64,000 bases of DNA from an uncultured Candidatus Peribacteria bacterium (lineage in GTDB: Bacteria; Patescibacteriota; Gracilibacteria; BD1-5; UBA2023), in the NCBI GenBank assembly GCA_964555845.1, contig CAZKUA010000004.1:12544-76543 (forward strand), read 5' to 3'. The translations under genes were made by a program, and so were the position numbers. Positions 1 through 64,000 of the stretch are shown in pieces. The first letter of the stretch is position 1; the number at the start of each line of letters is the position of its first letter. Below the pieces are notes generated by a model that was not told the origin of the DNA, did no database searches, and saw only the letters and a program-made list of their open reading frames with translations.

Positions 1-262
1 ATGTAAAAACTCAGGGTTTTATATACTTTATTATTATATCTTCTTTTTTCCATTCTCAACCCTTAATTTCATCTGCAAAAGTTTTATTAATTATAATATC
101 ATAAACTTCTTTTTCTTGTTCCTCTATAGTTTTAGGAATTTCTATTTTTAGTCATTTCAAAGCCCTTTGAAATTCATTATTTCATGATTGTTTGTTTCGC
201 TCAATAGCTGGATTTTGATGTAGTAAATCCATATTATTTATATCTGGTCAAGGCATTCACAT
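1..262 (-). CDS. hypothetical protein, C-terminal part cut by the window edge
   Basis: With TGA read as Gly, the minus-strand frame is open from ATG at 262 (alternative ATG at 256) to position 1. No TAA or TAG in frame. No recognisable motif. Confidence 0.45.
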
Positions 263-279
263 AAATTAAATAGTTAAAA

Positions 280-551
280 TTATTTTTTATCTTTTTGTTT
301 ATCTTTTGTTCTAATATCTATTCTCCTCAACTCCTCACTATTCTCGTCCAATTTATCCACATACCTAATCAAATCTACTATACTATGAGACTCCATAGAT
401 TTTTGAGTAGAATTTCGCTATCTCATATATCTTCTCAGAGATTAGCTATCATAGTTAATCAAGCAGTTGTTTTTACATTTGTTATATTCTTTCATATTGT
501 ATCATAATTTCTGTTTTTTGCAAAATCTTGGAACTTTCAAAATTTTCTATA
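280..551 (-). pseudogene. degraded C-terminal fragment of a lipase paralog (copy of the 3' end of CDS 630..2072)
   Basis: The translation (..NITNVKTTAGLTMIANLGEDIGDSEILLKNLWS.. then ..DLIRYVDKLDENSEELR..) parallels the last ~90 aa of the adjacent lipase gene. There is no start codon. In-frame TAG TAG lies at 375-380 and a frameshift follows. The nucleotide core 421-489 is about 90 percent identical (by eye) to the reverse complement of 1862-1930. Confidence 0.5.
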
Positions 552-629
552 CTAAAATTTGCATAATCTGCATAATTATATTACAATGTATCTAAATAAA
601 AACAAAATTAACAATTAAGTTAGATCAAA

Positions 630-2072
630 ATGCCTTCTCACGAATCATTTTCAAATAATAGCGAATTATCTCAAATATTGGAAATTAGTAAGCCAACTCC
701 AGAACAGCTAATAAGAGCTAGATTAAGAGCTTTAAATTCAATAAATTTCCTTCAGAAACATACACAAGTAGAAGATAAAGAAAAACAAAATTTTTTAATA
801 GATTTTGATATTGATAAAATATGGGAAAATTGATTTGAAGAACCAAAAAAAGAAACTTATTCCAAACCAGAAATGAAGACTAAAACTGAAGAATTAGGTG
901 AAAAAGAAAAATTGCAACTTTATGGTAATTTATCTAATTTAGCATATTCAGAATTTAAGACAATTCAAAATAAGCAAGAAAATTATAATACTCAAAATCT
1001 GCAGATTTCTTGAATAAAATTAGATCCACTAAATTATCCAAATATTAAAAAAATATTTACTGACAAAAAACCTGATAATCTAAATCCAGATGAAGAATTT
1101 TTGTATAATTATGTGAATAATGATAAAAATAAAATACTGATAAATATATTTAATAATCCCACCTCTGTAGCTTGAGATGTTAGAGATATATTAAGATTAG
1201 CCTGATTCAAAAGTGATATAAATGATATTAATTGAAATTTAAAATATGCTTTAAATGATGAATATTGAGTAATTTCTGATGCTTGAAATGGTATTTCTGT
1301 TTGAAATAATACCAAAGGAAATGAAGATTCCAAAAAAATAAAATTACTACAAAATTGATTTGAAGCTCTAAGAAAAGAAAAAATCAAAGAAAATTGAAAT
1401 GTTTTAGAAAGTATAAACTGAAATTTTGAAATACTTGATTATTATCCAAATGAAACCAAAAATGATAAAGTTAATTCTTGATTTTGAGCTATTTGTCTGA
1501 AAGATAAAACTACTTGAGAAAAAGTATTTGCAATTAGATGAACAGAAATTGATGATTGGTGAGATTTAAAAGCAGATTGAAAACTTTTGATTAAGTGAAT
1601 ACCCGAAAATCAAACAAAAGATATGATTGATTTTGTAGAAAGAAATATAACTAAATGAGAAAAATTTAATATTACTGGACATTCTCTCGGTTGAGCTTTA
1701 GGTCAAATACTCTCTGCCATGTATAAGGATAACAAACAAGAAACTTATACATTTAATTCCCCTGGAGCTAAAGAACTAAAATCAAATATAGAAGAAAATG
1801 ACCCATATTTTGCAAAATTTGATAAATTCGAGTATAATAAGAGTAAGAAAGAAACTTGAGAAAATATTACAAATGTAAAAGCAACTGCTTGATTGACTAT
1901 AATAGCTAATCTCTGAGAAGATATATGAGACAATGAAATTCTTTTAAAGAATTTATGGAGTCATTGAATAAGGGATATGATAAAATATATAAATAATTTA
2001 GATGAAAATAGTGAGGAGTTGAGAAAAAAAATTCACGAAAAACCTTCTGCTAAAAATAATATAAATGATTAA
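630..2072 (+). CDS. class-3 lipase-like alpha/beta hydrolase (480 aa)
   Basis: ATG at 630 and TAA at 2070, with the frame checked codon by codon under code 25. Nucleophile elbow GHSLGGA at 1677-1697, with the second Gly encoded by TGA. It is preceded by VFAIRGTE, which is typical of the lipase_3/DUF2974 family. Confidence 0.8.
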
Positions 2073-2092
2073 TTTTTAATTAATAATAATTT

Positions 2093-3004
2093 ATGTCTGA
2101 AAAACAAATAGATACATATGACGAAAATGCTAGCTCTTCAAATTGAGAATCAAGAGCTAATGATGTAAAAAATATTCCTAGCGATACACGAGAGATACTT
2201 TTTATAGGCTGATATATTAAGCCCTTTGATTATTATAAATCAAAAGAAGAAAAAGTGAAAGAAATTATTCTTAGTAGGACTCTTGATAAATCAATAAAAG
2301 AATGACATTATGAATGATGAATTGATGTTAAATATATTTGAGAAGGTCTTTATTTAGTTAAAAGTATAAAAAAATGAAATATAACTTTTTATTCTGATAA
2401 AGATTGAAAGCCTGTTTTTTCAATTTCATGAATAAGAACTGATTCTTTTATTAAAAATTGAAAAGCACTCGAAGATTTAGGATATATTGAAAAAAAAGAA
2501 GGCGATACTTATAATATGTATAAAATAGATTGATATAAAGAGTGAATTGATTGAAAAAAAGAGCCTATTTTATGAGAACAGATAAAAATTGATAATATTC
2601 AATATTATAAAATATGGAAAAATATTCTTTTTCAATCTGACATTTATAGTAAATTTTTTCTATTAAAAGATTGAAAACCTATTGAAAGAAAATTACTCAC
2701 TTATTTCATTGAATGATGATCCTTCAAATTCGAAGACCTTGAAATTTTCAGACAAAAATGACTCATAACTCCAGAAGATTTTAATTATTGAATTCAAGAA
2801 ATGAAAAAAGTATTAGTTTCTCAATGTGGTGACTCAAGACTTATAAATCTAAAATGACTTGACTGAAAAACTTCTTGAATAAAAGAGAGTGATTTAAAGA
2901 AATACATGGAAAAAAAAGAATATTGAATATCTCCAGAACTAGCTTTAGAATGTTATAAGGTTTTGCCTAAGGAAATGAGGGATTTGAGCAATAAAAATGA
3001 CTAG
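2093..3004 (+). CDS. hypothetical protein (303 aa), co-oriented immediately downstream of the lipase gene
   Basis: ATG at 2093 and TAG at 3002, an uninterrupted code-25 frame with many TGA codons. No recognised domain. Confidence 0.6.
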
Positions 3005-3025
3005 AAATTTTTTCTAGTCATTTTT
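2993..3025. terminator. bidirectional hairpin shared by two convergent genes
   Basis: Perfect inverted repeat AAAAATGACTAGAAA / TTTCTAGTCATTTTT with a 3-nt loop. It carries an A-run on one side and a T-run on the other. Both convergent CDS end inside it. Confidence 0.6.
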
Positions 3026-4954
3026 GTACCTCTCCACAAACTCCAAAATCTCTCAAATATCCCTAGTTTTATGTACGCTATCAAGTATCTTGTAAAAACC
3101 TATCTCATCATTTCTTTTTATATCTCACAAATATAGAGGAGAAAATCAATTTTTCAGTAATAATAAATCAGTTAAAATATCAATCGTTCTTCCATTTCAA
3201 TCTCAAAAAGGATGAACTACCGAGAAATCAGTTAAAAATAGAAGAATATCACTAATTCCTTTTTTTGAATCATTAAAATTCAAGACTATTTCTTGAATTC
3301 ATTTTTCTACTTTGTGATGTTTGAAATACACATTTTTATTTGGATTAGTTTTAGAAATAAGCTCAATATTTCTATATTCTCCAGGTACCATAGAAATAAA
3401 ATCTCTTCAATTAATATCTCTTGCTTTTTGGATAAATCAATTTGGATATAGATTTTTGTGAAGCTCTTTTATTATAGTATCACTTAATTTAAAAAATGGA
3501 TTTGAAATAATCTTTTTTTGACAAAAGTTTATAACTTTTTCAGTATCAGAGTTATATCAATTAAAGATTAGCTGATGTTTATCTTCTGGAGTTCTTAGAA
3601 GAGCATTTTTTAAGTAAGATAAAGTATTGTTGTATACTATTTTTCTGACATCATAATCTGAAAGTTCTGGGCGGATGTTTATGAAATTTTCAGAAATTTT
3701 TATATCTAATTTTCTTTGATATGTATTTTCTCAATTTTCTTTTATTGAAATGTATTGATTTAGCACCTCATTATATCATCAGTGCTTTTGCATAAATCCG
3801 ATAACAAGATATAAATATTGTTCATATTCATGTTTTACCTGCTCTACTTTTATTCCTGCTTGTTCCATGATTTTTCTACCTCACCATGAAGGATCTTCTA
3901 GAATATAATAAACTTCATCAACTCAAAAATCCACCAATGCTTTTGCACAATTATTACAAGGTTCCATAGTAACAAATAAAACTTTTTTACACTGTTTTCA
4001 TATATAATTTTGTCATTTATTTATAATATCTATCTCTGCATGAAGAGTGTGATTATTGTCTGTAACCACTCTATTTTGTCATAATATTTCTGTACTATCA
4101 TCTACAATCAAAACAGCTCAAATAGGATAATTTCAACTATTATATGTTTCTAGGGCCAGATTTATAGATTTTTGGAGATATTGTTCTATTTCAGTTATAG
4201 ATTTTTGTATATAAATATATTTTTCTTTTTTTAATAATTTTCAATCTTTAATATAATCTTTTATATTTTTAATTATTAATACAATTTCATTGTCTTTAAG
4301 TTTTTCAAACATTTTAAAAATCATAAATGAAATCATATTCTTTCATTTTTGCGTTAAATTTATTATTTCTTCTACTCAATAAAGGTGTGATTCTTTTACT
4401 TCTGTGGTATAGGAAATATTTAATTCTTCTAATGATAAAATTATATTTTCATTAATATCGTTTATTGTGTATCAAAGATTTTTTCTTAATATAGATTCAA
4501 TAGAATTAATATCTTTATTTACTATAATTATAGTTCATCAATAATTTAATTTTTTATAAACTATTTTTAATAGTTCTTTTATATTTCAAATAGAACGAAA
4601 AACAAAAGATAATATTATTATATCTGATCTTGGTAAATCTATATTTTCAATTAATTTATTATAAAAAATAACATTTTTATTTGTATTATTTTTTTTAAAT
4701 TCTTCTATTAATTCATATGAAGACTCAATATAATTATAAACATATTTTTTATTTAATTTTTGAAAATTAGCTATAATTTTATTGGCTATAATTCAATTTC
4801 CTGCTCAAATATCAGATATAATAATTTCCTCCTTGTCTAATTTTTGTATTATGTCAAAAATTGTTTGAGCTATAATATCTTTTTGATTTGTATTATTTAT
4901 CGAATCAAAATAAATATTTTTACTTGAATTATATAAATTAGGTATTCAATCCAT
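3014..4954 (-). CDS. three-domain fusion protein: SAM-methyltransferase-like + CMP/dCMP(TadA)-type zinc deaminase + Fic domain (646 aa)
   Basis: The frame was checked line by line: ATG at 4954, TAG at 3016-3014. MTase motif I DIGAGNG at 4793-4813. Deaminase motifs HAE at 4034-4042 and PCNNC at 3947-3961, preceded by YPIGAVLI. Canonical Fic motif HPFGDGNGRTID at about 3188-3214, with both Gly of HPF-G-D-G encoded by TGA. Confidence 0.8.
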
Positions 4955-5680: not shown

Positions 5681-8023
5681 TTAATTTTTATAAATTTTAA
5701 CGTAATCAATAATATCATTCCATTGGGATGTTTTGTCATTTTTCGATCAAATATATAACTCATTTCAGTAATTTGTTATAATTCATCAACTTGTAGTCGT
5801 ATTTCATGTAAGAATTAGATTATTTCAATCTAAAATAGATAAATTAGGAATTCAATTTTCAAATTTTGAGATTACTTTATAGAATTTATTGTTATCAGTA
5901 ATTTTTGTTATTATATCAGAATTATTTATAATAGATCTTGTATATAATGATCAAATATTAGTAAAATACAAATACAATCATCAATTATACATATTTAAGT
6001 TTATATCACTTGTTCATCCCGAAAAATTAAATAATTTATATGTTCCACTCTTTCTTTCTATTGTATTCAACGCCCCACCCCTCACACTCATCTCAATACT
6101 AAAACTATCCCCCAAACTCAATTTACTCAAATCATATTTCATATAATTGCTCTGAAGAGTACTCACTGCAATTCCTCTTTCTCCACTAATCATCGACATA
6201 AAGGAATTAGGTATATTCAAATAATAAATATTAGAATTATTTAAAGAAGAATAACCAGCCGAATTAATATATGAATTAGTTCAAACATCATTCTTATAAT
6301 TCCCTCAATCATATTTAGTACTCGCCACATAATCAGTTCTCGGTTCTAACTTCTTGTTATCAACAGTAGGAGAGTTACTATACATATACAAATCTCAGAT
6401 ATTATCGTATGGAGCATAGGCTACAAGATTCTCATCCTGACATCCAAATCATAGGAATGATTTCATTCAAGTTTCACACTCTAGATTAAATCCAGCTGAA
6501 GCTCTTTTTAGTCATATAATTGCAGATTCACTTATTGAGGTTCAATTTGAATTTAGTGTTGCCCGACCTGTACAATTTTGTTTTCACTCGATAATATTCA
6601 CACACAATCTCACAGCATAATTGTTACTTCAATTCCATGTAATTCCAGTCTTATCTATAACAGATAAAGTAGCCAAAAATGTCCCAGAATAACTATCTTC
6701 AACTCCATTTCCAGTTCACTTTATCTCAATACTCGTAGCTCACATATTTTCTACTTTAATTCCGAGCTTTCCAGATATACTTCTATCAATACTTATAATA
6801 TTCGGCAATATCCCTGAATTAAATTTTAATACAGGAGTTTCTATTTCGAGAACTTTTCCTGTTCATACATTTCAAGTATCAGATGATGTAGGAATAGCAG
6901 TTCATGTTACATTTAGATAAATTGGTTTTTCTCAAGTTTTCACTTCCATATATGAAACTCAGTCTACAACAGTAAATCAAGTTCAAATATTAGTATCTGT
7001 AAATAATGGAGTAGTACCTCAGGTCTCATTCTCTTTTGTTACCTCTAATTTTCAATCAATCAGTGATACACTTCCAGAAGAAGCATTTGTAGTCATTCCA
7101 AATACTGTTCATCTCACGGTTGCTGCTAGGAATTTATTTTTCAATTCAAATGAAGAGTTATCTTCCAGTTGCGGAGCTTTTACCCAGATTTCACCAAGAG
7201 ATAAATTAATCATTACTTTTGTGAATAAATTACTGTCATCAGTGTATTCTAAATCAGAAAAATCAAGAATTGATTCTCCAGAAGCTGACCCAAGTCTTAG
7301 CTCTGTCCCATCTGATAAATTAATTATCACAAGTCATCAAGTTTGCACTTTTATAGTATTTCATTTTTCTATCTCATAATCTAGAATATTTGTAGAAGTA
7401 ATCTCACCACCATTCCCATCTTCAATTTTCACACTTCCAGAATAAACTGATATTTTTCAGGTTAGTTTGATTTCGTATGGATTGTAAGGCAAGAATTTAC
7501 TCTTATTAGTCACAAAATTAGGTCCAGCATATTCTTTAACCAGTCCAGCTAGCTCCATTCTATTTCATCCAATATCTCAGACTACATAGCTAAAATATTC
7601 TCATTTTTCATTTAGAACTGTTGCTATATTGTATCCAGAATTTCCATCAAGTCTTTTTCAGAATGCATAATAATTTTTTGTTTGTTCATCTTTAAAAGGA
7701 TATCAGACCTTATCTTTAGAAAGAGTTTTTTGAGTCAAAAATCAACTTACTCAAAAAGCCCCAGACCCAGAATGCGCATAAGTTCATTTTTTGTCATAAT
7801 ACTGTCTGTTTCAGCTTGGGTCAGGAAAAGTCTTGTTTTGAGTGTAGCTAGTCTGAAACAGATTATATATTGCAGTCAAATCTGCTACACGAGAAGTATT
7901 ATATTGATTAGATTGATAATTCGTAGCAAATGTAAATCATACTATTGCGAGAACTGCGATTATGGCAGTGGTGGTGATTATCTCCACTAGAGAAAATCAC
8001 TTTATTGACTTATTCATATACAT
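5681..8023 (-). CDS. large type IV pilin-like (prepilin N-terminal domain) protein with a FecR-like and possibly a LamG-like domain (about 780 aa)
   Basis: The frame was checked line by line and ends at TAA 5683-5681. N-terminus M(YM)NKSIKG|FSLVEIITTTAIIAVLAIV is the class III signal / N-methylation motif. The Gly at -1 is TGA at 7997-7999. The FecR-like segment is LSDGTELRLGSASGESILDF...GEIWVKA...ATVRGTVFGM. The start is ambiguous among ATG at 8023, 8017 and 8053. Confidence 0.75.
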
Positions 8024-8161
8024 ATAAGTAAAGAAATAGTGACGACAGTTTAGCATATTTAGATAAGGAGTCAAATTTTTTTCACAAAAATTTGATTATT
8101 TTAGTATTTTTTATATAATTTGCTTTATTGAAAATCGTTCGTTTAATTTATTTTAAAAAAC

Positions 8162-11100
8162 ATGAAAATTATTAAAAAATTTTTTGTTTATATTATTGTT
8201 ATTTCACTTGTATTTAATCAGTCTTTTTATAACATAGTTAATGCCTCAGCATCGCTTAGTATTCAGCTTTTTTTGCTTAATTGAGTTTCTAGTAATTTAT
8301 CTGTTAATCCCGGAGATTCTTTTAAAATTTCTCTTGAATGAATTAATGATGGAACAGATACATTAACGAGTGTTTATTGAAATGTATATTTTTCTGATAA
8401 TAATAGTTTCACTTATAATACGAATTTATTTACTCTAATAAATTTTGCAACTATTACAAATCCTATTCCAGGGACTGATTATACGGCTTGAAATTGACTT
8501 TATACCCAGATTACTGGCTGATCGACAACGACATTAATCGCCTGAAAAAAACCAAAGATTTCATGAACAGCATTAAATAATTTCACTGCTAATTCTAATA
8601 TTTCTACTTATTCAAATACCATTTATTGAAAATTTAGCGGACTAGATCCGGCTCTAAATCCAATAAATTCTACTATAAGTCAACTTACAATTTATGCGAA
8701 TGTAAGACCTCATATCACAGATTATTATTTTGAGAAAGCTGATGGATCAGAGGTTACAAATCAAATACAATGAGCCAATGCAGAAGCTATAAACTTGGTA
8801 TTAAAAGTAAAAGATTATAATGGTTGTGCTAATATTGATGGGTGAGCCGTTGTAGCTAATTTAAGCCAGATTTGATTAAGTTCTTCTGAAAGTCTTACAT
8901 ATAATAGTTGTGATGGGGACGGTAAGACTGCTATATTTAAAAGAACTTGAATTACAACTACAGCATCACTTAGTACTTATAATTTTAATTATTCTCACTT
9001 TACTGCTACTGATGAAGATGGTAATGTAAATACTCCAACTGATGCTAATACAACTTTTGATGATGAAGATAAAAAAACTGATTTTCCACTTACTGTGATA
9101 TCAGCCGGAGCACCGGGCGTTAGTAATTTATGAATTACAGATGATTATATAGGATGACCAGCTGAGACTTCTACTACTTTTAGTTTCTCTGGAAGTCAGG
9201 ATGGGGAATACAAGGTGGCATTATGAAGCGATTGAACTTGTAATTGATGAACTACTTTACTTGATTGGACAGCGACATGAACTTATGTTGCCTGAGACTC
9301 TGCTAGTTTTGTAATTAATTCAGCAAGTCTTAGTGATTGAAATAATAATATCTATGCTTGTTTTAGAAATGTAACAAGTGAGATATGATCTACAACTCAA
9401 ACTATTATTAAGGATACTACTAATCCCACCATAAGCTCTCTCCAAGTGAGTCCCGCGAGTGTAGTTACAAATGATAGTAATGTAAGTTTTATTTGTAGTG
9501 AAGCAGGTTATTATAAGACAAGTATTGGATGAAATATAATTACGAATTATACCATAACTACTGCTGGGGCTACTAATTCATCAGTAATTCCAAATGCTAA
9601 TTTATTTGAATGAGATAATATCATTACAGTTTATTGTAAAGATGACGCCTCAAATGAGCTAACTACAACAACAAATGTAGTCAAATCTACTGCTCCACCA
9701 AGCCTAAATTGAGCTGTAACTTCCTTTTCTGATACTGATATTGATTATGATTGACTTAACTGATCAGATTTAAATTTTACTTGGGATAACACAAATGCTG
9801 TATCTTATAATTATTTTGAATCATATAGACTCTATCTTCTTCCATCTAATATTACACTAAATACTAGCTCTCATACTTATATTAAGATATTGTCCGATAA
9901 AAATCTAGCAACTTGGACTTGAGATTCTACCATTACAAAAGACTCTACAAATACAGACTTAGTTAACTGAGCAAGCTATCAAATGTGTATTGCAATTATG
10001 TGAACAAACTGACAATTATGAGAAGCTGGATGTAGCGATGCCTCAGCATTAATTACAGATGTAGTACAACATCCAAATGTACTTAGTGCCAGATTTAATT
10101 CTTCAACCAATTTAGAACTTACTACAGATGCAACTCTTGATACAGATATAGCTACTCATAGCGGAGAATTAGTATCTTTTATAGTGTGATCTACTACATA
10201 TACCGGAACTGCCATAGCTTCAGTTGATTCACAAAAAATTAATATTACAATCCCAGATTTATGAAATCTCTGAGCCACTTGAACAGGATTATTACTGTTT
10301 ACTTGAGCTATTCATTCTTTTTCTTGAGGATTTAATAATTATTTTAGCTCAGGAAGTCTTATAATTACTGACTGACAAGCTCCTACAATTGCTGGATTTG
10401 TAAATAATACGGCATCTCCTTATGGCTCTTTTTTCTCTTGATCTATAAATGTATGATTTACTTTCGCTGAAGCCATGAGAGCCTCTGGATATACCAAAAT
10501 TACTTTTGATAGAACTGCCTGAAATGCCTCAGCTCAAAAAATTTATGAAATAACCGATTCTTCTAAGCTAACTCCTGGAGTTCATAGTGTAGACATTAAT
10601 TTGGTATCTCTATGATTAGTCTCAGGTACTACTTATGATATGAAAATTACAGGACAAGATTTGGCTGGTAATTCTGTCACTTCTGGAGCTATTACTGTTA
10701 AATTTGATAATGTTTGACCGGTTATAATGAGTCTTAGCCCTATTTGAATTTCTTGAATTACTGATCCATTTTTTAATTGGCTTGCGACTACTGATGATGG
10801 CGGGAATTGATCTGGAGTTGGAGGTTATACTCTAAAAATATTTTCTGGATCTACTTGTACAACTCTATTATCTCAAACTGGAATTACAGACCCAATAACA
10901 CTGCAATATCAAGTACTTCTAGCTGATATGAGAGATTATGCTTGGAATATAGTCGCTTATGATAATATGTCTAATTTATGAACTACTTCGGCTTGTGATA
11001 GTTTTTCAGTAAATACTTCTATTCCAGTAATATCTAGTTTATCTATAAAAAATAATTGAGGAACCCCTATAACTTATACAAAAACAGCTGATACTATCAA

Positions 11101-14100
11101 AATCACAGCAAATGTAGTTAATTCAAATACTGATAATATTTCTATTAATCTTTCTTCTCTGACAGGAAATTGATCTCACACAAATGTAGTATGTAGTGCA
11201 CCTGGAGCTGGAATATCTTGTACTTATGTAGGGTGAGTAGTGACTTATACTTTTGCTGTATGATTTGCCGGAGCAGTAACTAATTGATTAAAATGGACAA
11301 CTCTTACTACAAATAATACAGATGGAATAAATACTCAAAATTCAAGTATTTCAGTTACTGTAGATAATACTGCCCCAGCTATAGTTGGAACTCCTATTAC
11401 TGCTCCAATAAGTTCATCAGTTTGGTGATGAACTACTCAGACTATAGTCCGGACTGCCGGGTCTATAACTGATAATTATTCTATTGCATACATGAAATTA
11501 GAATATAGTAATGATAACTGATGAAGCTGGAATGATATAGCTACAGGATCTAATCTAGGTTCTTATAACTGGGATATATCAGCTCTAGCTAGTGATACTG
11601 ATTATAAAATAAAATTAACAGCTTTTGATAGGGTAGATAATAATACTTCTACAATTTCCGATGCTTTTACTATAGATAAGGTTGCTCCTGCAGTTGCTGC
11701 TGATACAATTACTACTCCAAATGGGTCAAATATCTATAAATGATGACAAGCTCTTAATATTGCCTGGGATCAGACAAAAATAACTGACAATATAGCGCTA
11801 GCATCGAGTCCTATAAAACTCGAATATACCCTAGATAATTGAACCGCTTGGACTCAAATAGCAACAGGTGAAGCAAATGACGGGACTTACGCTTGGACAG
11901 TACCTTCGGTGAATTCTTCACAAGTCAAAATAAGACTTACAGCCACAGATAATGCTACAAATATAAATTTAGATACTTCTGATACTACTTTTATAATAGA
12001 TTCTACACTTCCAACTGTAGCTCTTACTTTTGCTGGAGCTGGATGATCTACTCCACAAAATGGAAAATATATCAATAATAGCTGATTAGATATAACTGCG
12101 ACAACTTCTGATTCCTATCTAGATAGAGTAATGTATAAATTAGAAAATATTACAGATACTCAATATTGGCAACAATCTACAACTGGATGGCTTGGAATAG
12201 AAAATTGGAATGATTTATGTATAGAACCTCAAGCTCTCTGAAATGGTTGAACTTGTGCAAATATAGCCGAAATTGCAACACTCGCAGGTATACTGGGTAA
12301 CAAAGATTATAGACTTACTATTAAGGCAATTGATGAAGCCTGAAATGAAAAAACCTATAATCCAGTCGATTATATTGGGGATGTTGTGAGTCCAAATTTA
12401 TCTATAACTACAGCAAATAATTATTATTTTAGTGGAAGTATAAATATAGCAGGTACTGCAAGTGATGCTCTGTCTGGACTTAGCTCGACTAATATTGAGA
12501 TAAAAAAATGAGCCTTATGGTGGAATGGGTCTGACTGGGTAGTTCCTCAGACGGTATTAGTTACTTCTGGGACAGCTGGGAATTGGAATTATAATTTTAC
12601 ATCGCCTGGAGCTGATGCGGACGCTACCAATTATAATGTAATAATCACGACTCATGATAGTGCATTTAAAACTAACAATAATACAAGTTCAAATATTAAT
12701 ATAATAAAAGATTCATCAGGACCAATTATTGATAATAGTGTATTTACCTTTGATACATCAGGAATTAGAAAATGATGAACTGCAATGACTATAACATGGA
12801 ATCCGGCGCTTATTACAACCATCTGAGCTTCACTAAATGCTAATTCTATAAAACTTGATTATAATTTTACAGGGTCTATAATTCCAATAGCTTCTTGAGA
12901 AGCTAATGATGGAAGTTATAATTTTACACTTCCAGCAGGAGTAGATAGTCTAACTGCAAAATTTATAATTACAGCATATGATAATTTATGAAATATTTCA
13001 AATGTTGTAGCGTCGTCTGATTTTATAATTGATAGTCTGCCTCCTACTGTTAGTACTGTTGAGACCCAGGATTTTAATACAGATGGTCAGATTGATTGAT
13101 TTATAGTTACCTTTTCTGAGAAAATAAATAATTGATCTGTAAATGTGGCAGAATTCAGTGTGTCAGATTGAATCACTCTTAATAATTGAAGTCATAGTAT
13201 ATATGATGCTGGAAATTATACAAAGCTTGAGCTGTATTTTAATGCACAATATTGAGACACTTCATCAATTCCTACGCTTAGTTATAATTGAGTGGCTATT
13301 GAGGATATTGCTTCAAATAAACTCGCTAATTTTACTAATAAGGCATCTGTAGATAAGGCTTCTCCTAGAATAACAAATGCTGAGATATATGATACTAATT
13401 CAAATGGAAAAGTAGACCAAATTAAAGTATATTTTACAGAAAATATAACCTCCACTACTGACATATGAAGTTTTACTTTAAATAATGTCTTGCCAGGAGC
13501 TTCTATATCAGGAGCTAGTGTGTCTGGAAATGTATGAACTCTGTCATTAGTAGAATCTTCAAATTATAATACTTCACCAGATGGAATGACCATTACCTTC
13601 TCTAATAATGGAGCATGGAAAGATATAAGTCCTGCCCTAAATGTCGCTGGAAATAGAGCAAATATAGCCCTAATAGATAAAGCTTCTCCTGTGAAAATAT
13701 CTGCTATAACTACTGATTCTAATTCAAACTCTAAAATTGATAGACTCGATATTACATTTTCTGAAGATATTGTCTGAAATATTGACTGAGATATTACTGT
13801 TTGAAATCTGGCAGCCGGATCATCTAAATGAGCCTCATCAGTTGTCTCTAATGTACTTAGAATTGCAATAAATGAAACAAGTGATAATAATGATACGGCT
13901 CAAATTCCAACTTTTGCATATAATTGAGCTAATTTAAAAGATAGCTCTAATAATCTAGTAGCAAATATTGCGAGCTTTAGTTTGAGTGATTGAGTAAAAC
14001 CAAAACTATTATTAAGAGAGACGGTCGATTCTAATTGAAATGGAAAATTAGATAAAATTAAAATAACTTTCTCTGAAACCCTAAATAATAATGTATGAGC

Positions 14101-29016: not shown

Positions 29017-29091
29017 AGCCCTATAGTTCATCGGTTAGAATTCAGGATTCCAAATCCTGCGAGGTCGGTTCGATTCCAACTGGGGCTGCCA
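29017..29091 (+). tRNA. tRNA-Trp (anticodon CCA)
   Basis: I folded a cloverleaf by hand. Acceptor AGCCCTA/TGGGGCT (one G-U pair). D stem GTTC/GAAT. Anticodon stem CAGGA/TCCTG with loop TTCCAAA. T arm with TTCGATT loop (one mismatch in the stem). 3' CCA is encoded. Confidence 0.85.
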
Positions 29092-45467: not shown

Positions 45468-45482
45468 AGCGCTCACATTTTT

Positions 45483-45925
45483 GGGGATGAAAGGATTCTA
45501 TTAAGAGAATCGCTGTTCTCATATGCTATCTGGGAGGTGTTTGTGGCTTCCATAATCAATTACAAACAACAACAAATGCTAACGCAAGAATCGGAGGTTT
45601 AGCTGTTTTAAAAGCTTCTTTTAAAAAAGTTCTAACTCCTGCTTACGCCTAGTCTAACTAAGCTTAAGCTGTAGCCTTCCCTACGGGAATGAGTGTCGGA
45701 TGACCTGCTACAAAAATGATATAGTTTCGTCTTAGAATTATGTCATTATTCATAAGACCATTGTCTAGATTTTATAATTATTTTGTATAGACATTGTATT
45801 AAAAATAATTCTTATGTAAGTTTTTTGTTAATTTTCAATTTATATAAGTACCAAAATTAACTATGATAGTAGAAGTATTTGGGTAGCCTCTTAAGACACG
45901 AGTTCAATTCTCGTCATCTCCACCA
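45483..45925 (+). ncRNA. ssrA: tmRNA (SsrA), about 443 nt
   Basis: 5' GGGGATG pairs with 3' CATCTCC followed by ACCA. The T-arm is CGAGTTCAATTCTCG. The candidate tag frame GCT AAC GCA ... GCT TAC GCC TAG (45578-45652) encodes ANARIGGLAVLKASFKKVLTPAYA, and its stop sits in a GCTTA/TAAGC hairpin. The 3' half is very AT-rich. Confidence 0.85.
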
Positions 45926-48030: not shown

Positions 48031-50319
48031 ATGCAAAATTTAAACAAAATACTTAAAGAAAGTTTTTGACTTGAGTCGTTTCTTGAATGACAACAAGATA
48101 TTGTGGAGAGTGTCTTGGATTTAAAAGACACTCTTGTTTTTATGCCGACTGGTTGAGGTAAATCGCTGACTTATCAGCTTTCTGGGATTTTGTTGCCGGG
48201 GCTTACGATTGTAATTTCTCCGCTTATTTCTCTGATGAAGGATCAATTAGACAAGTTAAATGAACTTAAGATTAGGACCGAGATTATCAATTCTACAATT
48301 TCTGGAAATGAGCAAAAACAAATTTTGGATGAACTAAATTTCACTGATTTTACGGAGAAAAATGCTATAAAATTCCTGTATATCGCTCCAGAAAGACTCA
48401 ATTCTCGTGAATTTCTGGATGCTATTTCAAATATAAAAATAAGTCTGGTTGCGATAGATGAGGCTCATTGTATCAGTCAATGGTGACATGATTTTCGTCC
48501 TAGTTATATGAAAATTAAGAATTTTTTGACTGATTTGAAAAAAAGACAAAATTTTCCAGTGATGGCATTGACGGCTACGGCTACGAAAAAAGTAAGAGCT
48601 GATATTGTGGATAGACTAGGTTTAGTTGATTACAATGTTTTCACGAAATGATTTGACCGCAAAAATATAATTTTACTGGTAAAAGAAATTAGTAAAAAAG
48701 AAGAAAAACTAGCTAAAACTCTAGAGATTATTGAGAAAACTCCAGGGTCTGGAATTATTTATTGTTCGAGTATCAAAATGGTTGAGGAGGTCCATGAATT
48801 TCTAAAATCAAATGGGGTGGATGTTGGTATTTATAATGGGTCTTTGGGGGCATCACTGAGAGAAAATGAGCAAAATAAATTTATGAATTCAACTTATAAA
48901 GTGATTGTCGCGACAAATGCCTTTGGGATGGGAATTGATAAAAGTGATATTAGGTTTGTAATTCACTATAATTTACCTGGAAGTATAGAAAATTATTATC
49001 AAGAAGTCTGAAGAGCCTGAAGAGATTGACTGAAGTCTTATGGCGTTGTGCTCGCGAGTTTTGGTGACACAAAAATCCAGGAATTTTTTATAGAAAATAC
49101 TTATCCCGCTAAATCAGAAATTCTAGATTTTTACGATTATTTATTTAAGGAATTTAAACTGGGTGAATGAAAATGAGCTCAAATTCTCAAAACTTATTAT
49201 CAAATGTCGAAAGAATCCGGAATTGGAAGTGATATGAGAGTTGGAAGTATTTTAAAAATTCTCGAAAAGTATGGAATTATTTCAAGGTGAGTTGATGAGA
49301 AAACAGATGAGGGATTTAGGTGAAAGTGAATCACTCTAGTTCAGGAAAAAAGAAAGCATTCTGGAATTTTAATCGATTGGAATAGACAAGATTTACTAAA
49401 AAAAGAAGCTTATTTTAAGCTCGACCAAATCAAAAAACTACTTTTTTATCCGAGTTGTAGAAGAAGATTTATATTAGAATATTTTCAGGATGAGGAGGAT
49501 TTGAGCTCGCTCCCAGATAATTGTAGGACTTGTGATTATTGTATTGAAAAGAAAAAACTTGAAAATAGGGAAGTGGAAAGTATTGTAAATTTGTCTGTTT
49601 TTGGATTAGTTTTAGAGGTAATTAAAAAACTTGATAATAAATTCTGAGTTATGACTTTTGTACAATTTTTGAGTGGAAGCCAAGATAAGAAAATATTGAG
49701 CTGGAATCTTGATAAAGATGAGAATTATTGAATTTTAACTGAATATTCTACTCAATTTATCCAGGCTCTAATTGAAGCTCTAATTCAACAAGGATTTATA
49801 GAGAAATCAAGTTGACTTTACCCCGTTATTTGACTTACAAGTAAATGAAATATTGCGCTTCGTAGAGAAGATTTACTCAAAAAAGAAGAAAAGGAATTAC
49901 AATCTTTTATAACACTCAGGTCCGGATCTAATATTTTCAAAAAAGATAAACCAAATAAAACAAGTGCTTCTAAGCCAAAGAAATCATCAATTTGAAAATG
50001 AGATACTTATGCTGAAACTCTTGACTTATTTAACGAGTGAAAAAATATCTCTGAAATTGCCAAAAATCGCGAAATGACAACAAATACAATAGAATCCCAT
50101 TTAATTAAACTCTATGAAACAGGGAAATTAGTGACTGTTGATTTATTAAAAATTGCCAATACCTCAAATGTTACTAAAGTCCAAGAAATTATAAAGTCTG
50201 ACTTTGCCGATAATACAGACAAACTAAGACCCATCAAAGACAAACTCGAGGAACTAGGTTTTTGAGAAATAAATTATTTCGAAATTAAGGTTGCAATTTC
50301 ATTATTGCTTAGAAACTAG
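48031..50319 (+). CDS. recQ: RecQ-family ATP-dependent DNA helicase (762 aa)
   Basis: The frame was checked line by line. MPTGGGKSL (middle Gly is TGA at 48154-48156) and the DEAH box ([18 protein letters not shown]). The Zn-binding cysteines are [10 protein letters not shown]...CRTCDYC. The C-terminal HTH-like tail is [14 protein letters not shown]. The code-25 stop is TAG at 50317. Confidence 0.92.
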
Positions 50320-55849: not shown

Positions 55850-55873
55850 TTTAACTAATTAACTTTATAACTT

Positions 55874-58604: not shown

Positions 58605-61361
58605 TTATTTATTTTTTAAAAGTTTTAAAATAGCTTCATTAAAAATTTCTTGTTTTCTTATTAATTCAATTAAAATTCTTTGGTTTTCTGTCAGGTTAGC
58701 TTCAACTATAATTCATTCTTTTAAGATTTTATCATTTTCTTTTAATACACCAACAATTTGTTCATTAATATCTACTTCTTCATCCATAGATTCACCATAT
58801 ACAGCATTTTCGATTTCATGTTGGCTCATTTCTCAATAAAGTAGTCTTTGTATTTCCTCCATTGTTCTTTTTTGTTTTGGGAACTGATTAGTTCTAACCA
58901 CTTTTAAAACTTCTTCTAGGGTAGTTTCTCATTCTATAACACGACAAAATCCATCCTCAGCCATACTTGTCATACCATATCTGCGGGCTATAGTTTCGAG
59001 TTCAGAAGCTGTTTTTCTTTGAATTACCGCTTTTTTTAATTCTTCATTTACACAAAATAGCTCTACAATACTTACTCTTCACTTATATCCAGTATCATTA
59101 CAATGATCACAACCTTTTCATTTTTTAAATTTTATTTTATGTTCTTTAAGATAATTACCCATATTTTTTACATATCTTTTTAAATATGAGAGATCATTTT
59201 CATTTGGAGTGTAATCTGTAATACAGTGTGGACATATTTTTCTAACTAATCTTTGTCCTACTAGAGACACAAGAGTTGAGCCCAAAAAGAATGGCTCTAT
59301 TCACATATTTATAAGCCTATCTATAGCAGATATCGCATCATTTGTATGAAGAGTAGATAATAATAAGCGACCTGTAAGACCTGCTGCTATAGCATTTTGA
59401 GCCGACTCTAAATCTCTCATTTCTCAAAACATCAAAATATCTGGGTCTTGTCTTAATATTGTTTTTAGTACAACTTCAAATGATATTTGATTTTTTCAGC
59501 CAGCATCTATTTGATTTGCTCATCTAATGGTATATTCAATTGGATTTTCCACTGTCACTATATTTTTTTCATCACTATTAAGATTAGATAGAGTTGAATA
59601 CAGTGTTGTAGTTTTACCGCTTCATGTAGGTCAAGTTATTATAATAATACCACTTGGAAGTACTGTTACAAGTTCATATTTTCTGGCAATATTTAGTCTC
59701 ATTCAGAGCTCTTGAACTGATGGAATTATATCTTTTTGAATTAATAGACGAGCAACTATTGTGTCTCAGAAATTTGTAGGTATTAGAGAAAATCTAATAT
59801 CAACTTTTATATCTTTATCATCATAATAAACACTTATTCTTTCATCGTATGTTTCACTTTTTTTCCAAGAATCAGCGAAAACAAAATAATTTTTAATAGT
59901 ATTTGTAAATCATTTACTAATTTGAATTGGTAACTCTCCAATTTGCTGAAGTACTCAATCAACGCGCGCTCTAATTCTTACTCTATCTTCCTCGGGTTCT
60001 ATATGAATATCTGATGCTCATTTATTTATTGCTTCTATTAAAATATCTGCAAATTTATTAAGATTGTCATTAGTTTCAGATCTAAAATTTTTTCAAATAT
60101 TAAAAACACCAGAAGCACTTTTAAAATCTTGCTTTGGTTCCATTTTTTCTCTACTCATTTTCCTAAAAACTCCCTCATTTTTGACACATTCATCAATAAA
60201 TGGGTTTATTTCATCTTTTGTGGCATATTCAAAAACTATTTCAATTGATAAATCATTTAATTCCTCTTTTTTTAGATTTGTAAAAATAGCTTCTTTAATT
60301 TCTGAAGATTTTTTTAAAATCTGTCTTTTTATTTCTTCTATTTTTTTTCCTGCTGAATCATCAGATAAAACTGTAATAATACATCCTTTAATTTCAGGAG
60401 GCGCCTTACTATCTTTATCTCATAATTTATCTTCATTTTTGTATGTCTGAAAAATTCTATAAGGTACAAAATTTAGATCCTTCATTATTCTTCTTTCTTT
60501 GCTAAAAATAGGAAAAATTTTTGGGTCTATACCAGAAATACTAGGTTTTGATCTAATCATATTCTTTTGTTGAGCTATGATTTTTAATAATCTGTCTTTA
60601 CTCACAACTCCCATATCTTCAACTAAAATATCTCATATTTGTTTTTTTGTTCATTTTGCTTCCCAATCCCTTTGTAATGCTATTGCATTTTCTAATTGTT
60701 CTCAATCTATTAAATTATTTGCTACCAGAAGCTCACCCGTTTTCATAGAGAATTCAGGGTGAGATTTTATAAAATTTAAAAATTTTCTCCTATCAATAAA
60801 ACCGAGAATCATTAATATTTCTCAAACCATCATTATTTTACCATCTTTTGCCTTTTCTGCTTTATATTTTAGAGCTTCCTCAAGATTTTTTTGAGTAATA
60901 AATTGAGCTTCAATCAGAGCTTCTCATATTTGCTTTCTAGGTATATTATTTTTAATAGGGACTACATCAGTATCTACAGGTAAATTTATAATACTTTGAG
61001 TCTTGTCTTTAACTTCTTCTTTTTGAGAGGTTAAAGGTTCTACTCTTGATTCTATAATTTTTATTTGTTCTCTATCAGTAGGAATAATTCAATTTTTTGC
61101 AATAAAATCAAGGAATTTTTTTCTGTTTTTTTCAATATTTTTAGATCAAAATAATATCTCTAAAAATGAAGGAATTTCTCATATATCCTTATTTGAATTA
61201 GCTATTTTTTTTTGATAATCTATAATTTTATTAAGATCTCATTCAGATAATAAATTTCATTTTATGAATTTTTCTCAGATTATTTTTGAATTTTCTAGTA
61301 AATTTAATAATGCTTGCTCATTTCAAGCTCAAGAATTTATTCAACTATTTATTGTATTCAT
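58605..61361 (-). CDS. pilB: type IV pilus assembly / T2SS GspE-family ATPase with an extended N-terminal region (918 aa)
   Basis: The frame was checked for every line. Walker A is TGPTGSGKTTTL at 59607-59636, with two Gly encoded by TGA. Also present: the Asp box, Walker B (DPDILMFGEMRD), the His box ([10 protein letters not shown]), the tetracysteine CPHC...CDHC, and N-terminal GSPII_E_N-like repeats. Confidence 0.9.
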
Positions 61362-61757: not shown

Positions 61758-61824
61758 TAAAGATTTTCTATTTTTGATTTTTTCATTTTTATTATTAGAA
61801 TGTATGAAATAATAATTTTATAGC

Positions 61825-63111
61825 ATGGAAAAAATAGAAAAATCACTTAAGCAATTATCTCAAATATGGCAAGAATTTAATATAGAGTGATATTTGAATA
61901 TTTATGAAACTAAATCAAAAGAAATCTCATTCACTCCAGTTTGAGATGAAATTAGTGTGAGTCAAGATACGGATGTGAGTCTGATTTTAAATATTATCAA
62001 AAACAATAAAAAACTTACAATAAAACAAAATTCGCTGTCTTATGAGGATTTGTGTGATAAAATTAAAGATAACTTATGACTTCTTGAGGTAGGTAGCGCT
62101 GATTCTGATATTTATATGTTTCCGACAAAAAATAGTCTAGATGTTGATGAAATAAAATTTGATATAGACGACATTTCTTGAGATTTTCTTTTATCACAGC
62201 GGAATAAAGTCAAAAATTATAAATTTAGTCCTAACATTTCAGTTGAGGCATTTTCATATTCTCTAAATTCAGAAAATAGATATTTTATAAATTCTCTTGG
62301 CGCTTCTAAATCGCATAAATCAACTCAAAACTCATATTTTTTATGACTTTATTATGATACTCTAAATTTTTCTGACACAGAATATGAAGTTTTTTATAGC
62401 TCAAATTATGAGAATGTAACTTCCGATTTTATAGCCAAAACTGAGCAAAAACTTCTCGCAAAAGTTAATCCTCAAAAATCCCAATTAAAATCTTGATTTT
62501 ATAATGTTACATTTAAAAATAATTTAGCAGGAGATTTCCTAGATATTTTACTGAGTTGATGTAGTGGAGAAAAAATCAGACAATGAATTTCTTTCTTAAA
62601 AAAATGAGATATCTGAAAAAAAATTGTAACAGACAAATTAAATATAAAATCAATTCATAATATAGACAGTTCTCCATTTAACAGATTCTTTGATTCTGAG
62701 TGAATTGACACAAAAGACTTATTTATTATCAAAAATTGAGTTTTAGACGAGATTTTTCTTGATTCTAAAAATGCAAAAAAATATTCCAAAGATCCAAATT
62801 GAAATCCAACTTATGCCAATATTGCTCTAATTTGAGACAAAACCAAGGATTTTTTAAAAAATACAAATTTCTTATTTACGAATTTAATGTGACTTCATAC
62901 TATTGATTTTTCTACCGGTAAATTCGCGCTCGAGTGAGAATGATTTGAGGTTAACAATTGAAAAATTTGAAATTTTGTTAAAAATGTTAGTATAAGTTGA
63001 AGTATTCTAGATTTATTTTTATCGCTAGATTCTATTTGAGATGATATTTATGAACATTCTGCTATTAAAACTGGCTCAATTACTTTTTTAAATCAAAATA
63101 TAATTATATAA
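61825..63111 (+). CDS. TldD/PmbA-family metalloprotease (428 aa)
   Basis: The frame was checked line by line. ..SSPFNRFFDSEGIDTKDLFIIKNGVL.. and ..LMGLHTIDFSTGKFALEGEGFEVNNGKI.. match the PmbA_TldD C-terminal signatures. Confidence 0.78.
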
Positions 63112-63112
63112 A

Positions 63113-63844
63113 ATGCAACAAATAATTTTACAAATTTGAAATACTCTGGGTCTAAATCCACAAAATGATGTGTATATTTTGATTTGATTTTTTGTTTTTT
63201 TCATAATTTTTGCAATTTTATGAACTTCAAAAATTTATGAAGCTTTATTTTGAATTGTGCTTTGAATTTCAATTTTTATAGTTGTTCAAATTTTGCTTTG
63301 ATATAGCGGAAATGATTCCTATTCTCTGACATTTATGAGTGAGAAAATTGTTAAATTTATTGTCGGATCTTCAGTTTATTTAATAATTATTTTATCAATT
63401 TTGGTGCCAATTAATTGATGATTTCAAGGATCGTCTACCAAAAATCCAGCCTTAAAAATATTTGTAACAATATTTTTATCAAGTTTACTTATTTTATTAT
63501 TCTCGGCAATTTTGGCTTGATTAATCGAACAAATCTATATTTTTAAAATTGATAATGCATTTAGTTTACTCAAAAAATGGCCAAAATTTACAGAATTTCT
63601 ATCTTGATCTAAAATATATGCTTTCTTAATTTCATATATTCATATTATAATAGTTTTTGGCGTATTTTACGTCATTTATAAGCTACTTTTTGCTGATATT
63701 GTGTCTTCGATGCTTAAGTGATTTTTGTCTTCATTATTTAAGAAAAAGGACAAATGAGCCTGAGATTGAGACTGAGAAGATTATTGACATCATTAATTTT
63801 TTTACAAAATCAAAAAATATGATACAATGTTTCTGATTTAATAA
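63113..63844 (+). CDS. integral membrane protein (243 aa)
   Basis: The ATG lies 1 nt after the previous stop. The frame was checked. TAA at 63842. It has several hydrophobic helices and an acidic Gly-rich tail, KGAGDGDGEE. Confidence 0.55.
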
Positions 63845-63851
63845 AATATTA

Positions 63852-64000
63852 ATGAAAAAATTTAATAAAAGATGAGAAACTCTAGTTTCACTTTTGATAT
63901 GAATGTTTATAATATCATTAGTGATTTCTTGAATTGCAACAATTATTGGCTCTAATTACAGTTTAGAAGATAATTTTATTAAAAATAATAAAGTTTTTTT
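63852..64000 (+). CDS. pilin/pseudopilin-like protein, N-terminal part only (continues past the window)
   Basis: MKKFNKRG|ETLVSLLIGMFIISLVISGIATII is prepilin-like, with a short basic leader, Gly (TGA) and a hydrophobic helix. It lacks the conserved Glu at position +5. Confidence 0.45.

Follow-up and report, generated by a model that had tools for sequence, protein, structure and literature searches.

A chromosomal segment of a Gracilibacteria-lineage bacterium in which UGA encodes glycine and CGG very probably tryptophan

Read with the standard code, the 64,000-nucleotide stretch of DNA analysed here (referred to as the window) looks close to non-coding, which raises the question of the genetic code in which it is written. 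The original prediction was that all of it uses NCBI translation table 25, in which UGA is read as glycine, and that its standard-code open reading frames (ORFs) are artefacts.

The window matches contig DOSC01000027.1 of assembly GCA_003512235.1, a genome of 27% GC, and its nearest relatives by sequence matches are Candidatus Gracilibacteria metagenome-assembled genomes (MAGs), to which the window ValRS is at most 86% and the MutS_V-domain protein 89% identical at the protein level, with synteny extending over about 10 genes. The best ValRS and MutS_V matches, which are syntenic, are titled Candidatus Gracilibacteria bacterium and assign the window to the Gracilibacteria or Absconditabacteria, the groups to which table 25 had been said to belong, in agreement with the published survey (PMC8629427). 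A non-overlapping gene set with TGA as a sense codon comprises 42 genes and 19,055 codons, covers 89.5% of the window and includes the housekeeping genes valS, tyrS, rpsB, tsf, pcrA, recQ and pilB, together with tRNA-Trp and tmRNA. The window is almost certainly a normal stretch of the chromosome of an uncultivated Gracilibacteria-lineage bacterium (Patescibacteria/CPR), with UGA as glycine, UAA and UAG as sole stops, UGG as tryptophan and CGG very probably as tryptophan. The features used below are as follows.

630..2072, plus strand: class-3 lipase-like protein (GHSLG-G-A motif)
3014..4954, minus strand: 646-aa fusion of methyltransferase, cytidine-deaminase and Fic domains, 29 TGA
5681..8056, minus strand: protein with a prepilin-type N-terminus (K-G|FSLVE) and a FecR domain; one CGG, at 6565-6563
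8162..15769, plus strand: giant protein, 2535 aa, 120 TGA; CGG at 11450-11452
21336..23981, plus strand: valS (ValRS), 881 aa, 28 TGA (motifs; alignment to standard-code ValRS and to E. coli)
24012..24749, plus strand: HAD/phosphomannomutase-like hydrolase (DLD-G-T motif)
26939-27730, plus strand: rpsB (E. coli alignment)
28155-28943, plus strand: tsf (E. coli alignment)
29017..29091, plus strand: tRNA-Trp(CCA), with A1:U72, G73 and a normal 5-bp anticodon stem
32749..34740, minus strand: M23 peptidase, two CGG codons
37051..40749, plus strand: MutS_V-domain protein, 1232 aa, 45 TGA; CGG at 37990 and 38956
41421..43610, plus strand: pcrA/uvrD helicase, 729 aa, 30 TGA (Walker A; E. coli alignment)
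45483..45925, plus strand: tmRNA (Rfam alignment)
46734..48014, plus strand: tyrS, 426 aa, 23 TGA (E. coli alignment)
48031..50319, plus strand: recQ helicase, 762 aa, 22 TGA (motif; E. coli alignment)
58605..61361, minus strand: pilB/gspE-type secretion ATPase, 918 aa, 32 TGA (Walker A; E. coli alignment)

TGA as a sense codon

Under table 11 the 64 kb contain no ORF of at least 300 aa, the longest being 152 aa, whereas reading TGA as sense yields 23 such ORFs, the longest of 2540 codons; treating TAG or TAA as sense instead did not rescue the frames of the window. TGA occurs in frame 813 times (4.27% of codons) and in 41 of the 42 genes, and neither TAA nor TAG is found in frame among the 19,055 codons. 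As predicted, every one of the 42 genes ends at TAA (28) or TAG (14), so that UAA and UAG are still stops. The tmRNA tag frame also closes with TAG and lacks TGA; its tag, ANARIGGLAVLKASFKKVLTPAYA, runs from the resume codon GCT at 45578 to TAG at 45650-45652, a reading inferred from the Rfam alignment.

The near absence of coding capacity under table 11 is what the standard code would give if the TGA codons were true stops, the genes then being pseudogenes, products of sequencing error or carriers of programmed read-through or selenocysteine sites. Against this stand 813 in-frame TGA codons versus zero in-frame TAA or TAG, the conservation of the pattern across at least 15 relatives and the location of TGA on invariant catalytic glycines, for example in Walker A motifs and next to the HIGH region. 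TGA density is also uniform along genes, without a surplus near gene ends: the stop follows the last TGA at a median of 15 codons, the same as the TGA-to-TGA spacing, and the longest run without TGA in each gene is 76 aa in the median. The standard code was rejected on the lack of in-frame TAA/TAG, the conserved recoding in relatives and the presence of TGA on ValRS glycine columns, and we regard it as the least credible of all the readings considered.

The standard-code ORFs are thus the artefact that they had been taken for. Table 11 breaks up 41 of the 42 genes, and the genes called on the source contig in public records are fragments of 14–128 aa, some of them on the wrong strand.

UGA is read as glycine

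The in-frame TGA codons fall on glycines of well-known motifs, and each of the motif sites put forward in the original prediction proved correct. In ValRS, the two positions marked x in RLK-x-DD..WIP-x-TDHAGI are TGA codons (21549 and 21573), and the columns of these and of four further TGA codons (21735, 21828, 22059 and 22140) hold Gly in all 12 standard-code ValRS sequences. The Walker A motifs contain TGA at 41484 and 41490 in PcrA (A-G-A-G-VGKT) and, on the minus strand, at 59633-59631 and 59624-59622 in PilB (T-G-PT-G-SGKT). Further examples are RecQ MPTG-G-GKS (48154), the Fic motif HPF-G-D-G-NGR (3205-3203 and 3199-3197, minus strand), the lipase GHSLG-G-A (1692), the hydrolase DLD-G-T (24042) and the prepilin-type K-G|FSLVE (7999-7997, minus strand).

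A tabulation of residues in TGA-aligned columns, proposed with the original prediction, showed glycine to be dominant. In seven genes aligned to E. coli, Gly lies opposite 66 of 110 TGA codons (60%, against a background of 7.1%; binomial p = 7e-47) and Trp opposite none; in tsf all five TGA codons lie opposite Gly of E. coli EF-Ts, and in tyrS 13 of 23 aligned residues are Gly. Across the 12 standard-code ValRS, glycine accounts for 49.5% of the residues in TGA columns and tryptophan for 0.6%, a profile close to that of the columns of the window's own GGN codons (58.7% G). Conserved tryptophans, as had been claimed, are written TGG, including those of the ValRS stretch starting at 22536: all 18 TGG codons of valS are on Trp columns, and the share of W in TGG columns is 92% for ValRS and 82% in the E. 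coli alignments. The tRNA-Trp(CCA) at 29017..29091 decodes UGG only.

A 20-way likelihood for TGA places Gly best, 103 nats over Ala and 205 nats over Trp. In a control covering all codons, the standard meaning was recovered for 50 of 54 well-sampled codons and TGA was the sole strong deviation, the other three being weak S/T/D ambiguities. Codon shares agree: TGA makes up 4.27%, TGG 0.68% and GGN 2.52%, and the GGN and TGA total of 6.79% is a normal glycine content, which fits Gly.

In a comparison with the syntenic relative L011 that assumes no code, TGA of one sequence stands opposite GGN of the other in 96 cases and opposite TGG in none. The TGA recoding is common to 15 of 27 ValRS loci, and the full-length ValRS matches of these 15 recoded relatives contain 47–54 TGA plus GGN codons and 16–18 Trp.

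UGA as tryptophan, the Mycoplasma/Spiroplasma-type code of table 4, has in its favour that TGA is clearly a sense codon, that the genome is AT-rich (27% GC) and that public pipelines have translated the relatives in this way, as follows from the roughly 5% Trp and 1% Gly of their public proteins. In the window, however, this reading would give 4.9% Trp from TGA plus TGG and leave 2.5% Gly, and it is opposed by the Trp counts at TGA (0 of 110 E. coli residues, 0.6% of ValRS columns), by the 205 nats separating Trp from Gly, by the lack of any TGA–TGG interchange between relatives and by the relatives being Gracilibacteria rather than Mollicutes. Table 4 was rejected because ValRS columns, E. 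coli alignment, relative comparison and likelihood are all against Trp; its probability is minute, if slightly above that of the standard code. The original prediction had warned that annotation with table 11 or table 4 would miss or mistranslate nearly every gene; table 4 preserves the frames but writes Trp at 813 glycine positions.

In the window glycine is frequently written UGA, translation ends only at UAA and UAG, and UGG is tryptophan; these are the assignments of NCBI table 25. Because the Gracilibacteria clade is already known for UGA as glycine, proteomics included, this main claim is correct but not new.

CGG as a probable tryptophan codon

Table 25 leaves all other codons standard, and this probably fails at CGG, which behaves as Trp. 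CGG is rare (9 of 19,055 codons, 4.7 per 10,000), as is CGA (5 codons, 2.6 per 10,000), and arginine is mainly AGA. The CGG comparison covers six of the nine window sites, the remaining three, including 6565-6563 in the prepilin/FecR protein, being without comparators. A relative has TGG at four of the six and an Arg codon at none, whereas at ordinary Arg sites (AGA/AGG/CGT/CGC) relatives have TGG at 0 of 194 and an Arg codon at 164 of 194 (Fisher p = 2e-7 for TGG and 2e-5 for Arg codons).

The M23 peptidase CGG at 34380-34378 (aa121) occupies an aromatic 'G-[Y/W/F]-GN' column in which relatives have TGG (three), CGG (four) or TTT (one), and that at 33300-33298 (aa481) is opposite TGG (three), CGG (two) or AAA (two). 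In the giant protein, TGG is found in both aligned relatives (aa1097), and at 38956 in the MutS_V-domain protein (aa636) relatives show TGG, TGA, CGA and CGG. Conversely, relatives show CGG where the window has TGG, including ValRS W619, a position occupied by Trp in 10 of the 11 standard-code references. Just outside the window on the same contig, a CGG (L035 position 14888) falls on the Trp of the PKD signature 'WDFGD', where two Pfam PKD models score W 9–10 bits above R.

It might be argued that the code is plain table 25, with CGG standard and the CGG/TGG alignments reflecting true Arg-to-Trp substitutions or chance. There are only nine CGG codons in the window, W outscores R by only 1.6 bits in the Pfam column of the M23 site, the CGG at 16987 is opposite GAA in a relative, and that at 37990 (MutS_V-domain protein, aa314) is opposite AAA in three relatives and CGG in one, in a poorly conserved basic stretch where Arg looks natural. 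The CGG opposite Lys codons would also be compatible with ambiguous or transitional decoding. Substitution or chance would nevertheless have to produce TGG opposite four of six CGG sites against 0 of 194 ordinary Arg sites, no Arg codon opposite any CGG, a PKD signature Trp written CGG and CGG in relatives at the invariant ValRS Trp 619, and we consider plain table 25 unlikely, though a serious contender.

On these alignments, CGG very probably specifies Trp and not Arg, the code being table 25 with CGG reassigned to Trp. The original prediction held in every test as regards UGA as glycine; plain table 25 probably falls short of the full code, because CGG is very likely Trp.

The CGG/Trp pattern is repeated in low-GC relatives: those with GC ≤0.31 share the change, whereas those with GC ≥0.36 keep both CGG and CGA as Arg, so the change appears confined to a low-GC sub-lineage. 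For CGA, the one window site with an aligned relative is opposite GAT in a poor alignment, and one alignment column contains TGG, CGG and CGA across three genomes. We judge it likely that the code corresponds to no NCBI table and combines UGA as Gly with CGG (Arg) as Trp, with CGA nearly extinct (the five codons above), in this low-GC sub-lineage only. If so, the clade would offer a natural series for watching arginine codon capture. GCA_003512235.1 was not found in the text-form supplementary files of PMC8629427, and so far has no independent published code call.

Decoding machinery and known systems

The only tRNA of the window is tRNA-Trp(CCA), and the other loci examined showed no tRNA; tRNA(UCA), tRNA(CCG), prfA and prfB were found neither in the window nor in those loci, and no release factor domain was detected among the 27 of 42 proteins compared with Pfam or, by BLAST, with E. 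coli. The machinery is hence taken from the clade literature, according to which a dedicated tRNA-Gly(UCA) would decode UGA, RF2, the terminator at UGA, would have been lost, and RF1 would serve UAA and UAG. For CGG the expected decoder is a tRNA(CCG) bearing the Trp identity elements, G73 without A20, which would differ from tRNA-Trp(CCA) by a single anticodon mutation. Strong AT mutation pressure (27% GC) could have moved glycine usage from GGN (2.5%) to UGA (4.3%).

For Gracilibacteria and Absconditabacteria, which have tRNA-Gly(UCA) but lack RF2, UGA as glycine is established (PMC8629427, which cites Campbell et al. 2013 and Rinke et al. 2013 for the table 25 code), and BD1-5 proteomics recovered 97 peptides unique to Gly translation versus three for Trp (Hanke et al. 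2014, PMC4032931). The window resembles table 25 (SR1/Gracilibacteria) in its frequent UGA glycine codons, its UAA and UAG sole stops, UGG as Trp, low GC and Candidatus Gracilibacteria MAGs as nearest relatives, and differs in CGG, very probably Trp here and not so in table 25.

The window also resembles the extended code predicted by Codetta (Shulgina & Eddy 2021, PMC8629427), in which Absconditabacteria have UGA as Gly plus CGA and CGG as Trp, and 'some Gracilibacteria' have CGG as Trp. As in that code, CGG is rare, interchanges with TGG in low-GC relatives and lies on conserved Trp positions, and the window's arginine is mainly AGA; CGG and CGA as Arg in higher-GC relatives match the patchy distribution reported there.

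Table 4, with UGA as Trp, is used by Mycoplasmatales, Entomoplasmatales and several insect endosymbionts. They resemble the present case in that a UGA stop has been taken as sense in an AT-rich, reduced genome, with RF2 loss expected in both. They differ in the amino acid, which here is Gly and not Trp, and in that UGA is about six times as frequent as UGG in the window, which is impossible for a Trp codon.

Reading frames and the amino acid at TGA

In the window, which has a GC content of 27.2%, the standard bacterial code (table 11) yields no open reading frame (ORF) of at least 300 aa and a longest ORF of 152 aa, whereas treating TGA alone as a sense codon yields 23 ORFs of at least 300 aa, the longest of 2540 codons; in the same scan, reading TAG or TAA as sense instead did not restore long frames. 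The in-frame TGA interruptions are thus, as originally predicted, an artefact of the standard code. A non-overlapping set of 42 genes with TGA as sense covers 89.5% of the window, and the expectation that frames end at TAA or TAG holds for every one of them (28 and 14 genes respectively). These genes contain 813 in-frame TGA codons compared to 130 TGG codons, with at least one TGA in 41 of the 42, and the table 11 track is fragmented because the longest TGA-free stretch per gene has a median of only 76 aa. TGA is evenly placed across gene deciles, and the last TGA of a gene precedes the true stop by a median of 15 codons, the same as the spacing between successive TGA codons. There is no sign of residual use of TGA as a terminator.

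The genes valS, rpsB, tsf, uvrD, tyrS, recQ and gspE were identified by BLAST against their E. coli K-12 orthologues, with the identity of ValRS also given by a PDB search (E = 5e-176 to 1gax). Window proteins matched the Pfam families Lipase_3, Fic, HAD, Peptidase_M23 and PmbA_TldD, and a MutS_V domain was assigned through precomputed Pfam hits on homologues of the window protein. Pseudogenes, sequencing errors, selenocysteine or read-through, and phage origin were each rejected as explanations, given the housekeeping genes, the synteny with a 489-kb MAG contig and the uniformity of TGA.

TGA makes up 4.27% of codons in the window genes and the standard glycine codons (GGN) 2.52%; their sum of 6.79% is a normal glycine content, and codon usage therefore points to Gly. 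If TGA were instead read as Trp, as in table 4, TGA and TGG together would give an impossible 4.9% Trp. The residues aligned with TGA were tabulated, as the original prediction had proposed, against two reference sets chosen to make the test independent of lineage, namely 12 standard-code ValRS genes from other phyla and the E. coli orthologues of seven genes. At 28 ValRS TGA columns the references carry 49.5% Gly (background 6.1%) and 0.6% Trp (background 2.9%), and at 10 of these columns all references with an aligned residue have Gly; the control GGN columns are 58.7% Gly and the TGG columns 92% Trp. The 110 E. coli residues aligned with TGA are 60% Gly and 0% Trp, and the corresponding controls are 56% Gly for GGN and 82% Trp for TGG. 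The binomial p value for Gly at TGA-aligned sites is 7e-47, and a 20-way likelihood based on BLOSUM62 places Gly first, 103 nats over Ala and 205 nats over Trp. Applied to all codons, the likelihood procedure agrees with the standard code at 50 of the 54 well-sampled ones; three of the remainder are weak S/T/D confusions of at most 2 nats, and the only strong deviation is TGA to Gly.

Pairing of codons between the window and the syntenic locus of its closest relative (L011) provides a code-independent test: over approximately 5,500 aligned codons, TGA lies opposite TGA 233 times, opposite GGN 96 times and never opposite TGG. In the ValRS genes of 15 recoded relatives, TGA and GGN codons together number 47–54, and Trp codons 16–18, for the full-length matches. 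Together these analyses show that UGA encodes Gly, that UAA and UAG are kept as stops and that UGG encodes Trp. At the level of individual sites, TGA was found at the predicted glycines of ValRS (21549, 21573), PcrA (41484, 41490), RecQ (48154), PilB (59633, 59624), Fic (3205, 3199), the lipase (1692), the HAD hydrolase (24042) and the prepilin (7999), and the conserved Trp motif at 22536 indeed uses TGG.

CGG as a probable tryptophan codon

The CGG and CGA codons of the window were examined because the Codetta paper predicts reassignment of both to Trp in Absconditabacteria, and of CGG to Trp in some Gracilibacteria (PMC8629427). Both codons are rare.

CGG codons in the window (n = 9), by first base; minus-strand codons run downwards
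6565
11450, giant protein; TGG in a relative
16987
33300, M23 peptidase; TGG in a relative
34380, M23 peptidase; TGG in a relative
37990
38956, MutS_V protein; TGG in a relative
56042
62200

CGA codons in the window (n = 5; 2.6 per 10,000)
2189
30341
32557
36691
53118

Comparators were the DNA of relatives from a genome scan, a metagenome scan and three contigs found via homologous proteins; MutS_V homologues were compared as DNA, several of the public proteins being in table 4 with an ambiguous 'W'. Six CGG sites have comparators, and at four of these at least one relative carries TGG, whilst an ordinary Arg codon occurs at none. At 194 AGA, AGG, CGT or CGC sites in the same comparison, TGG occurs at none and an Arg codon at 164 (Fisher p = 2e-7 for TGG and 2e-5 for the Arg codon). 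Exchange is also seen in the other direction, with relatives carrying CGG opposite TGG of the window, including at ValRS Trp 619, where 10 of 11 standard-code references have Trp.

Profile models were consulted at two positions. At CGG 34380 the Pfam M23 model scores Tyr best, then Phe, then Trp, all above Arg, with a weak preference of 1.6 bits for Trp over Arg. A further CGG lies 1.5 kb past the window on the public contig DOSC01000027.1 (locus L035, position 14888), where it encodes the first residue of the PKD-domain 'WDFGD' signature; two Pfam PKD models give 49.1 and 39.8 bits for Trp, the best of eight residues tried, compared to 40.1 and 29.6 bits for Arg. Relatives with a GC content of 0.31 or below show the same CGG behaviour as the window, whereas in those at 0.36 or above CGG and CGA lie opposite AGA or AAA of the window, i.e. 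as Arg.

Plain table 25 would keep CGG as Arg, and two sites lean that way: CGG 37990, in a poorly conserved basic stretch, is opposite Lys codons in three relatives, and CGG 16987 is opposite GAA. Against this, CGG and TGG replace each other in low-GC relatives, and no Arg codon stands opposite CGG at any of the six sites (out of nine) that have comparators. We therefore consider it likely, on codon substitution, that CGG is read as Trp in the window's genome. The original prediction of code 25 consequently stands for UGA, for the UAA and UAG stops and for UGG, but table 25 probably does not give the full code of this genome, since CGG, apparently Trp, falls outside it.

One MutS_V column has TGG, CGG and CGA in three genomes. 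When the paralogous genes 54095, 54803 and 55874 are aligned with one another, the region around CGG 56042 stays unaligned.

Translation machinery and other features of the window

The tRNA-Trp(CCA) in the window is canonical, with A1:U72, G73 and a 5-bp anticodon stem. Neither tRNA-Gly(UCA) nor a Trp-type tRNA(CCG) was found in the window or the fetched loci, and tRNA scans of all fetched loci returned no tRNA. An RF2 gene was likewise not seen there, with no release-factor domain in the 27 window proteins compared with Pfam or E. coli. By analogy with the clade literature, UGA would be decoded by tRNA-Gly(UCA), RF2 would have been lost, and CGG would be decoded by a Trp-type tRNA(CCG). The window also contains a tmRNA, missed by ARAGORN:

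45483–45925, plus strand, tmRNA (Rfam, 67.7 bits)

Judged from the Rfam-aligned resume codon, its tag reads ANARIGGLAVLKASFKKVLTPAYA, in a frame that has no UGA and closes at TAG 45650–45652. The ORF at 44390–45553 (minus strand) overlaps the first 70 nt of the tmRNA, so its true start is probably further downstream.

Several other genes are unusual in size or arrangement. A 646-aa protein (3014–4954, minus strand) combines SAM-methyltransferase, cytidine/dCMP-deaminase and Fic domains, an unusual fusion, and a short second Fic-like gene (4958–5551, minus strand) lies immediately upstream. Three tandem paralogues of 222, 348 and 368 aa (54095–56980, plus strand) have a conserved N-terminal half in common (…CSNIYEILAHPAIFNPL…NSHKNAY…GDIEGNL…). 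There are two very large ORFs on the plus strand, of which the 2535-aa protein (8162–15769) is conserved at 68% identity in L011 and 45% in L041, a further relative's locus, and the 988-aa protein (51102–54068) has no Pfam match.

Relatives, public annotation and comparison with known codes

The window is 99.98–100% identical to the 93-kb DOSC01000027.1 (GCA_003512235.1), with two mismatches over the first 10.8 kb. The coordinates of the two are offset by 438 at the left end and by 1182, or 744 bases more, close to the right end, and the window may derive from a slightly different version of this contig. Both the window and the contig carry, at their left end, inverted diverged copies, 74–97% identical, of the 3' portion of the lipase-like gene and of a section of the gene that follows it (window 321–494 and 1857–2028; positions 1–101 of contig locus L034 and window 2704–2804); these represent either a relic inverted duplication or a contig-end assembly artefact. 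The ValRS and MutS_V proteins are 86% and 89% identical to those of a Candidatus Gracilibacteria MAG (JALNXF01), with synteny over about 10 genes. The records of the other recoded relatives name them as Gracilibacteria, Patescibacteria or Peribacteria, the last probably wrongly. In L011, valS directly adjoins the M23 peptidase gene, whereas in the window they are separated by approximately 8.8 kb (23982–32748). Here lie rpsB, tsf, tRNA-Trp, two genes for HAD hydrolases and a further five to which no function is assigned, four of which were scanned against Pfam and gave no match; relative to L011, this block is an insertion or rearrangement.

The warning that other code tables would mistranslate these genes is borne out by public records. 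Gene calls on DOSC01000027.1 are fragments of 14–128 aa, several on the wrong strand, and proteins of three close relatives (P0002, P0003 and P0004) have 4.7–5.7% Trp and 0.9–1.7% Gly and were therefore translated with table 4; as 'W' in such entries stands for TGA or TGG, protein-level comparison is unreliable in this clade. On the window itself, table 11 produces short fragments and wrong-strand ORFs, and table 4 proteins of full length in which about 4% of positions are filled with Trp, errors that harm homology search, domain annotation and structure prediction clade-wide. Table 25 would in turn probably misplace Arg for Trp, for example at the aromatic position of the M23 peptidase beside its active-site region.

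UGA as Gly has been known since 2013, with proteomic validation in 2014, and the value of the finding is practical rather than conceptual. The CGG signal is the more interesting part; to our knowledge, bacteria seldom reassign a codon from one amino acid to another (sense-to-sense), and the cases known to date rest on computational prediction only. The literature searched contained no follow-up paper on CGG as Trp in Gracilibacteria, and the assembly accession was not found in the text files among the Codetta paper's supplements.

For Gracilibacteria and Absconditabacteria it is established that UGA is reassigned to Gly, with tRNA-Gly(UCA) present and RF2 absent (PMC8629427), and in a BD1-5 bacterium proteomics recovered 97 peptides unique to Gly translation and three unique to Trp (PMC4032931). 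The link to this clade made in the original prediction agrees with the Candidatus Gracilibacteria MAGs found as relatives, and the UGA phenomenon is one already known there. For part of the clade, CGG as Trp has been predicted computationally in a published study, and the window adds to this the independent backing of codon-substitution analysis.
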